A stretch of DNA of 64,000 bases from Oxalobacteraceae bacterium (GCA_947454305.1 CANGJE010000005.1:7509-71508); one strand, 5' to 3'; positions 12,745-12,807 are shown, counted from the stretch's first letter. Numbers and translations: made by a program. The notes: generated by a model from the letters alone, not told the origin.

Positions 12745-12772
12745 GGAACTTTCAAATGAATGCTGTGACTGA
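12745..12772 (+). promoter_or_regulatory. putative ECF-sigma (hrp-box/RpoE-like) promoter
   Basis: GGAACT-N17-AC-TG-A; same motif and spacing at 39711-39738. Confidence 0.45.
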
Positions 12773-12807
12773 CATTCCTCAATACTTTTTGAGGAATGTC
12801 GGTCATG
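12764..12807 (+). promoter_or_regulatory. hairpin occluding RBS and start codon of the Sel1 gene
   Basis: Perfect 12-bp stem 12771-12782/12789-12800, extendable by 7 more pairs (3 G-U) over ATG 12805; contains GAGGA. Confidence 0.65.

Follow-up and report, generated by a model that had tools for sequence, protein, structure and literature searches.

A stable hairpin across a putative ECF-type promoter and the start of an inserted Sel1-repeat gene, and its possible role against operon read-through

The window, by which we mean the whole 64,000-nt stretch of Oxalobacteraceae DNA analysed here, contains a group of genes all read on the + strand, grxC, secB, an SH3-domain gene and gpsA (stop at 12696), followed by a gene for a Sel1-repeat protein and then by the gspG-H-I pseudopilin genes (Table 1). 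In a blastn comparison with locus L005 of the relative G009, homology ends at 12715 and restarts at 14746, two points that lie about 8 nt apart in G009, and this delimits the insertion listed in Table 1. Proteins identical to the gpsA product come from the NCBI assemblies GCA_947448825.1 and GCA_947378435.1. The hexamer TCATGA, which contains the ATG at 12805, does not vary among ten aligned homologous leaders, which come from six genomes, and we therefore take this ATG to be the real start of the Sel1 gene; gene calls in four other assemblies pick the same position. A search of public genome contigs with the entire Sel1 protein as query gave no further leaders, its matches being generic Sel1-repeat proteins of unrelated phyla only.

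Between the gpsA stop and gspG (15042), the sole terminator-like site on the + strand lies at 14971-14986, on the 3’ side of the Sel1 gene. Either GGGCACTTTTTC or GGGCACTTTATTGC stands before gspG in L005, L006, L010 and L011, and the window version reads GGGCAC followed by a T-run. The element at 14971-14994 is likely to be the original terminator of the gpsA operon and to mark the end of the gpsA unit. The suggestion that no terminator follows gpsA thus holds for intrinsic terminators, since there is no + strand site before 14971, and Rho-dependent termination after gpsA may occur. Because the Sel1 gene lies between gpsA and the conserved terminator of the operon, read-through into Sel1 is expected, and the gpsA operon is the presumed source of the read-through RNA. 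An AT-rich hairpin at 12698-12725 was considered as a terminator and is not credible as one, being a weak fold (-7.8 kcal/mol, z -1.0) that is not conserved in relatives. The same AT-rich inverted repeat, TTATTCGT...ACGAATAA, spans the left boundary of the insertion at 12715/12716; its right half lies in inserted DNA, and the repeat could have been left behind by the insertion or be there by chance. The hairpin at 14971-14994 is kept across the genus, including distant GC-rich members that read GGGCACTTTATTGC.

Table 1. Features at the Sel1 locus, with window positions, and comparable promoter cassettes in the genus, with opening energies of the start region (kcal/mol) for the long and short leaders defined in the text
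Feature	Position	Strand	Long / short	Basis or remark
gpsA, last gene of the co-directional upstream operon	11707-12696	+		ORF list; Pfam NAD_Gly3P_dh_N and NAD_Gly3P_dh_C on identical protein
Insertion of 2.03 kb relative to G009 (promoter, hairpin, Sel1 gene)	12716-14745	+		blastn of window against L005
-35-like element GGAACTT	12745-12751	+		GGAAC invariant in 10 homologous leaders; same element upstream of the genome's own rpoE
-10-like element TGACTGA (class consensus BBACNGA)	12766-12772	+		16 nt past GGAAC, inside 5’ arm; AC and GA invariant in alignment A1
Hairpin 5’ arm (anti-RBS strand)	12764-12782	+		RNAfold, RNAalifold
Predicted transcription start window	12776-12782	+		inferred from usual ECF -10 to +1 distance (4-10 nt after the -10)
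Hairpin loop TACTTT	12783-12788	+		RNAfold
Hairpin 3’ arm with Shine-Dalgarno GAGGA (12791-12795) and start ATG (12805-12807)	12789-12807	+		sequence, RNAfold, alignment
Sel1-repeat protein gene, 643 aa from conserved start	12805-14736	+		Pfam Sel1, 9 stretches, E 6e-114
Terminator-like hairpin and T-run	14971-14994	+		conserved before gspG in relatives without the insert
Second same-class promoter, GGAACT-N15-TTACGAA, serving gene 39866-41788	39711-39738	+		divergent upstream gene; negative control
F-box-like, own genome C114 (also G019, G005, G042)			14.0 / 3.6	
Ankyrin, own genome C90 (also G042, G009)			16.4 / 5.5	
Ankyrin, G046			21.7 / 6.3	
Ankyrin, G071			15.5 / 5.2	
LRR-like, own genome C11			13.0 / 6.6	
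Orphan family, G042 C2, two copies			14.9 / 4.5 and 13.5 / 6.1	
Orphan family, G009 C39			12.4 / 5.1	
Orphan, own genome C32			8.4 / 5.7	weaker masking
F-box-like, G009 C9			8.1 / 1.8	weaker masking

Read from the window sequence, 12764-12807 consists of TGTGACTGACATTCCTCAA, the loop TACTTT and TTGAGGAATGTCGGTCATG. Twelve perfect pairs join 12771-12782 to 12789-12800, and seven more follow, three of them G-U. The 19-bp stem claimed by the sequence-only reading is therefore present, and RNAfold forms 18 of its pairs at -29.6 kcal/mol. Dinucleotide shuffles of the hairpin averaged -7.2 kcal/mol (z -9.8) and none of 200 was equally stable; the hairpin remains the dominant fold when the RNA is extended to 91, 134 and as much as 341 nt. 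The 12-mer arm has no copies in the window beyond the two arms themselves, and the leader is single-copy across the 2.66-Mb genome. A search of 12000-13500 against Rfam matched no family and gave chance-level microRNA and snoRNA matches only. GAGGA (12791-12795) and both ATGs that had been put forward as starts (12796 and 12805) sit in the 3’ arm, so the proposed burial of the ribosome-binding site and of both ATGs is borne out, while the conserved start is the second of these and the ATG at 12796 does not hold up as one.

Several familiar readings of such a structure were tried and set aside. It is not an intrinsic terminator: there is no U-tract, the stem is followed by AGCCTAAATTC, and the terminator scan reports none there. 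RNA thermometers of the ROSE or fourU type rely on a weak, mismatch-containing helix over the Shine-Dalgarno sequence that melts at about 30-42 degrees C, and here 12 perfect pairs plus 6-7 others give -29.6 kcal/mol at 37 degrees C. Nor does it look like a recombination site, since it does not sit on the left boundary of the indel but some 48 nt further in.

The upstream side of the hairpin coincides with a promoter-like motif that can be read in two ways, as GGAACTT-N16-ACTGA (sigma-E type, with ACTGA at 12768-12772) or as GGAAC-N16-TGACTGA (hrp-box type). In the ten homologous leaders from six genomes GGAAC and the AC and GA of the -10 are invariant and the spacer is variable; the distance from GGAAC to the ATG is 58-60 nt in all ten Sel1 leaders, and the spacing from GGAAC to the -10 is identical across the cassettes described below. 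On the strength of motif and conservation we regard 12745-12772 as a putative ECF-type promoter. Its putative -10, TGACTGA at 12766-12772, falls within the left arm of the hairpin (12764-12782), as the sequence-only reading had noticed. No sigma-70-like promoter was detected in 12300-13100. At the same time, the pattern GGAACY-N15-16-BBACNGA is not more frequent genome-wide than its reversed control, which means that single matches are credible only with context, and we used only matches in a sensible context.

To express how strongly the start region is masked, we used the opening energy, that is, the free-energy cost of making positions -16 to +3 relative to the AUG single-stranded. Folding long against short leaders, which had been proposed as a check, gave the expected difference for Sel1: RNAs starting anywhere from 12500 to 12764 require 26-30 kcal/mol, and those starting at 12778-12782 require 6-9 kcal/mol, with a graded fall in between and beyond (17.4 for a start at 12772, 12.3 at 12776, 9.0 at 12778, 6.6 at 12779 and 6.3 at 12780-12782). 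The representative values for the long leader and for the leader from the predicted +1 are 28.9 and 6.6 kcal/mol. As background, the median over 500 genes of this genome is 6.9 kcal/mol, with a 95th percentile of 13.1 and a 99th percentile of 16.4, and among 95 starts lying 60-175 nt behind a co-directional ORF (median 6.6) the Sel1 start has the maximum, 28.9.

ECF promoters normally initiate about 5-9 nt after the -10. Taken together with the drop in opening energy, this distance suggests that RNA from the gene's own promoter should have an ordinary, open ribosome-binding site, and that RNA entering from the upstream operon should hardly be translatable at all. The exact predicted start is uncertain, as only pyrimidines occupy +5 to +8 after the -10, the closest purines being those at 12781-12782; initiation at 12774-12776 would keep 7-9 bp of stem over the Shine-Dalgarno sequence, with an opening energy of 12-14 kcal/mol.

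The Sel1 leader and gene also occur in G064, G042, G019, G008, G005 and G058, with the same helix at -10.6 to -29.6 kcal/mol. Across ten Sel1 leaders 91% of alignment cells at the stem positions are paired, and shifting the partner by one to three columns lowers this to 31-52% (alignment A2 was left out of these pair counts, as it includes reverse-strand matches of the near-palindrome). The RNAalifold alignment shows compensatory changes at three pairs (for example, UA:5, CG:4), and the covariation score was matched by 12 of 500 shuffles, which we treat as moderate evidence only because the Sel1 sequences are paralogues. The G005 Sel1 leader shows no difference in opening energy between the long and short forms. 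The family is in rapid duplication and loss. Locus L053 (G064:C79:1-6420) has four tandem Sel1 paralogues after gpsA, each with its own promoter-hairpin cassette, and G042 (L054) has two truncated Sel1 copies, the first of which reads into the second cassette. In that first truncated copy the -10 is mutated to TGACGGA, most of the stem is lost and the opening energy is 8.0 kcal/mol.

The same layout precedes genes unrelated to Sel1. We searched with a covariance model, which includes the hairpin, and with the plain promoter pattern, and compared in each case the read-through leader (long) with the leader from the predicted +1 (short). Within the genus, nine gene groups representing seven distinct protein types (Sel1, ankyrin, LRR-like, F-box-like and orphan genes among them) share a promoter of the ECF type whose -10 is overlapped or closely followed by the 5’ arm, with the 3’ arm spanning the Shine-Dalgarno sequence and AUG, and their stems are unrelated in sequence (Table 1). 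A further cassette, in G015, masks weakly (5.8 kcal/mol). In nine of nine representatives the partners of the Shine-Dalgarno-AUG region lie at offsets 18-40 from GGAAC, a stretch that begins at the -10 and ends shortly beyond the predicted +1. In each of the nine groups 62-100% of these 5’ partners are upstream of that +1, and in none of the nine representatives is the 5’ arm wholly within the predicted transcript. The stems of the other cassettes are 8-13 bp and always pair with the Shine-Dalgarno-AUG region. The covariance model found no match in 140 genomes of 61 other families of the order. That this design recurs before genes without homology to one another, each time on a different stem, points to selection acting on the architecture.

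This recurrence bears on three other explanations. One is that the helix serves RNA processing or stability, either as an RNase III target that inactivates the downstream cistron or as a protective 3’ stem-loop for the gpsA-operon mRNA. A helix of 18-19 bp is near the length that RNase III can cut, and it lies 68 nt past the gpsA stop, where no terminator hairpin exists. The stems of the other cassettes, however, are 8-13 bp long and yet always target the Shine-Dalgarno sequence and AUG, and a 3’ stabiliser would need neither the next start codon nor a register with a promoter, so we think this explanation improbable. Moreover, cleavage by RNase III would silence the read-through RNA only, and would thus be a variant of silencing by masking, not an alternative to it.

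The repeat could also act in DNA, as a palindromic operator or cruciform over the -10 and +1 that is bound by a dimeric repressor of an effector regulon. It covers the -10 to +28, and several cassettes share the outer half-sites ACNGA and TCNGT. From one gene family to another, however, the stems have no sequence in common and the half-sites are spaced differently, and the 5’ arms in C90, C32, C11 and G009 C9 begin only after the -10; together these differences argue that there is no common operator. G-U pairs and compensatory changes suit pairing in RNA and not a DNA consensus, and the 3’ arm always matches the Shine-Dalgarno-AUG position. A DNA-level role is, in our estimation, very improbable. 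The third explanation, that the inverted repeat is a chance or neutral feature without function, carried along with a duplicated cassette, would fit with the Sel1 leaders being paralogues whose conservation is partly inheritance. It is extremely hard to square with the shuffling result (z -9.8, 0 of 200 as stable), with the Sel1 start being the maximum among 95 comparable junctions, with the independent origin of the same design on unrelated stems, or with its decay in a truncated copy, and we give it almost no weight.

Analysis of the neighbouring genes revealed that every hairpin cassette lies 16-184 nt behind a co-directional gene. The gap is 49 nt behind gpsA, 25 behind a mutase-like gene, 29-33 behind a dapE-like gene, 61 behind an ABC-F gene and 16-107 behind the others, with C11 of the window's own genome at 184. 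Promoters of the same class in other surroundings look different. The sequence-only reading had pointed to the other orphan gene of the window (39866) as a case that receives no read-through, and its upstream gene is indeed divergent, there is no masking hairpin, and its opening energies are 8.0 (long) and 7.9 kcal/mol (short). An 885-aa gene (C3 type) with a divergent TetR-like neighbour has no hairpin and gives 5.1 / 3.9 kcal/mol in the window's own genome, 5.0 / 3.6 in G042 and 6.0 / 4.5 in G009. A LuxR-type response regulator with an equally short leader and a 357-nt upstream gap has long-leader values of 6.0-7.2 kcal/mol in three genomes (6.0 / 4.6 in one) and no hairpin, and a gene in C9 of the own genome, with a 199-nt leader, gives 5.6 kcal/mol, again with no hairpin. 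When families are counted once, all seven values from positive contexts exceed all four from negative contexts, which would happen by chance one time in 330, the sample being small. The ankyrin gene of G046 and the F-box-like gene of C114 were found as positives with the hairpin-containing model, and the subset found by pattern alone splits alike. The prediction implicit in the sequence-only reading, that the hairpin should be found only where read-through is expected, therefore agrees with what is seen in about seven positive and four negative families.

The same evidence helps to judge the possibility that the true start lies upstream of 12764. The helix would then be a constitutive translational brake in the gene's own mRNA, opened by a helicase, an sRNA, a protein or heat. 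Such a brake is compatible with a helix that buries both the Shine-Dalgarno sequence and the AUG, and with a start site placed by prediction and a tentative sigma assignment. On the other hand, no physiological temperature would come near to melting a hairpin that has 12 perfect pairs and folds at -29.6 kcal/mol, 12300-13100 contains no sigma-70-like promoter, there is no Rfam match, and no upstream element is conserved other than GGAAC-N16-BBACNGA, which keeps a constant register to the 5’ arm across nine gene groups. In addition, promoters of the same class without an adjacent upstream gene have no hairpin, which a dedicated riboregulator would not predict. We therefore consider a brake of this kind unlikely.

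We think it reasonably probable that the hairpin instead insulates the Sel1 gene against read-through. In this model, the Sel1 gene would have arrived with its own ECF-type promoter and become inserted between gpsA and the operon terminator. Polymerase coming from the housekeeping operon would copy both arms, and the resulting helix of 18-19 bp would bury the Shine-Dalgarno sequence and AUG, so that the RNA would not be translated. When a dedicated sigma factor fires the gene's own promoter, the first transcribed base would lie some 5-10 nt past the -10, either within the 5’ arm or downstream of it; the RNA so made would be without the anti-RBS strand and could be translated normally. Protein output would thus track the dedicated promoter only. 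Those parts of the silencing model that can be addressed in silico, namely the opening energies, the recurrence, the dependence on context and the position of the gene ahead of the operon terminator, all came out in its favour; that the promoter is active, which sigma factor it uses, where transcription starts, that read-through RNA exists and how translation turns out are what we infer.

The underlying mechanism is known from other systems, and what would be new is the setting: chromosomal, inserted eukaryote-like genes with a shared promoter class and independent stems that occur only where read-through is expected. The bacteriophage T4 genes e (lysozyme), soc, 49 and I-TevI have a late promoter inside a hairpin that sequesters the ribosome-binding site, with a difference of about 100-fold, as shown experimentally (McPheeters et al.; PMC3014915). 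As in T4, the Shine-Dalgarno sequence and AUG here are predicted to be sequestered on long transcripts initiated upstream, and a predicted alternative-sigma promoter lies in the DNA of the 5’ strand. The T4 promoter is the gp55 late promoter TATAAATA and belongs to a phage temporal programme, whereas here we have a putative chromosomal promoter of ECF type, GGAAC-N16-BBACNGA; unlike in T4, the genes are horizontally inserted and eukaryote-like, and the read-through source would be a housekeeping operon.

A second parallel is the ‘protection from outside activation’ of IS10/Tn10 and IS50, in which a segment carried by transcripts from outside base-pairs with the signals for starting translation (Davis, Simons and Kleckner 1985, Cell 43:379, cited in PMC13181058, 10.1101/2025.01.24.634351). 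As proposed here, a foreign gene guards in this way against fortuitous expression from external promoters. In IS10 and IS50 the element's own promoter starts inside the repeat. Those systems concern transposase genes and sigma-70 promoters in terminal inverted repeats; the Sel1 insertion has no transposase or terminal repeat, and, unlike in IS10 and IS50, the design recurs over cargo-like genes with one promoter class.

As to the promoter class itself, the hrp-box consensus of HrpL is GGAAC-N16-17-CCACNNA (PMC4149516). The cassettes resemble HrpL promoters in the -35, the spacer and the xxACxxA core, as well as in the effector-like nature of the downstream genes, and those in C11 of the own genome, in G071 and in G015 read CCACAGA. 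The window -10, TGACTGA, matches the AC and the final A of the consensus but not its CC. We know of no HrpL promoters embedded in hairpins that mask the ribosome-binding site. Sigma-E (RpoE/AlgU, ECF02) has the consensus GGAACTT-N16-TCTGA/TCAAA, and the window agrees with it in GGAACTT, in the 16-nt spacer and in four of the five -10 bases (ACTGA). Unlike in the sigma-E consensus, an A and not a T precedes the key C of the -10 in all cassettes, and the targets are not envelope-stress genes.

The genome, whose assembly has gaps, encodes RpoD, one RpoS/RpoH-like factor, FliA and RpoE. The last of these is the sole complete ECF sigma found, and the rpoE gene carries GGAACTT-N16-TCAAC, with a -10 that is not ACNGA. 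No HrpL-like ECF sigma was found in this gapped assembly, and the same search space gave no YscC-family type III secretin above the cut-off. A search for ammonia monooxygenase (PF02461) was negative too, but says little, since the control genomes gave no match. Close relatives encode a protein of 217 aa that has an acidic N-terminus and contains sigma-70 region 2 but not region 4 (L146, G042:C2:38500-45500, about 3163-3816, minus strand; also in G009:C45 near 56.5 kb). Its neighbours are a STAS-domain gene and a gene for a 455-aa protein with an FHA domain and transmembrane segments, and the locus lies between hom and thrC. The whole hom-thrC region is without a tblastn match in the assembly from which the window comes, a sign of an assembly gap, and a second sigma-like factor may accordingly be encoded there.

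The proteins behind this promoter class (own genome C114:3383-4885, C32 and C3:13661, minus strand; window 39866-41788) include several with N-termini rich in S, T, N, P and Q, no Pfam domain and F-box-like motifs, such as LPLDIMNKIASFIP in the C114 protein. By their sequences, the ankyrin (C90, G046), LRR-like (C11) and F-box-like genes together look like a eukaryote-targeting effector set. We put forward, as a tentative idea that could well turn out otherwise, that they form a genus-specific regulon of horizontally acquired, eukaryote-like effector candidates under a hrp-box-like ECF promoter, in a genome with no recognisable type III system, and that genes which land in housekeeping units independently evolve an anti-RBS strand across their own -10 and +1. 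Translation would then be licensed by the dedicated sigma factor only, and this would be a general, convergent route of domestication that does not require adding terminators.

If this is true, the insulation known from phage T4 and insertion sequences also serves ordinary chromosomal genes under an alternative sigma factor and has arisen repeatedly. It would explain how inserted genes can stay silent inside housekeeping operons, with no upstream terminator, until their regulator fires. RNA-seq coverage would in such cases not predict protein output, and operon predictions drawn across such junctions would mislead. The cassette, about 65 nt with promoter, anti-RBS strand and ribosome-binding site, would also be a compact natural part for synthetic biology, and it marks a small candidate effector regulon in an uncultured proteobacterial genus. 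The LuxR-type response-regulator gene mentioned above carries GGAACT-N16-CCACCGA, with no hairpin masking its ribosome-binding site, in the window's own genome (C35 near 17573, minus strand) as well as in G042 (C1:358024) and G009 (C34:30095), and could be a member or a regulator of the regulon.
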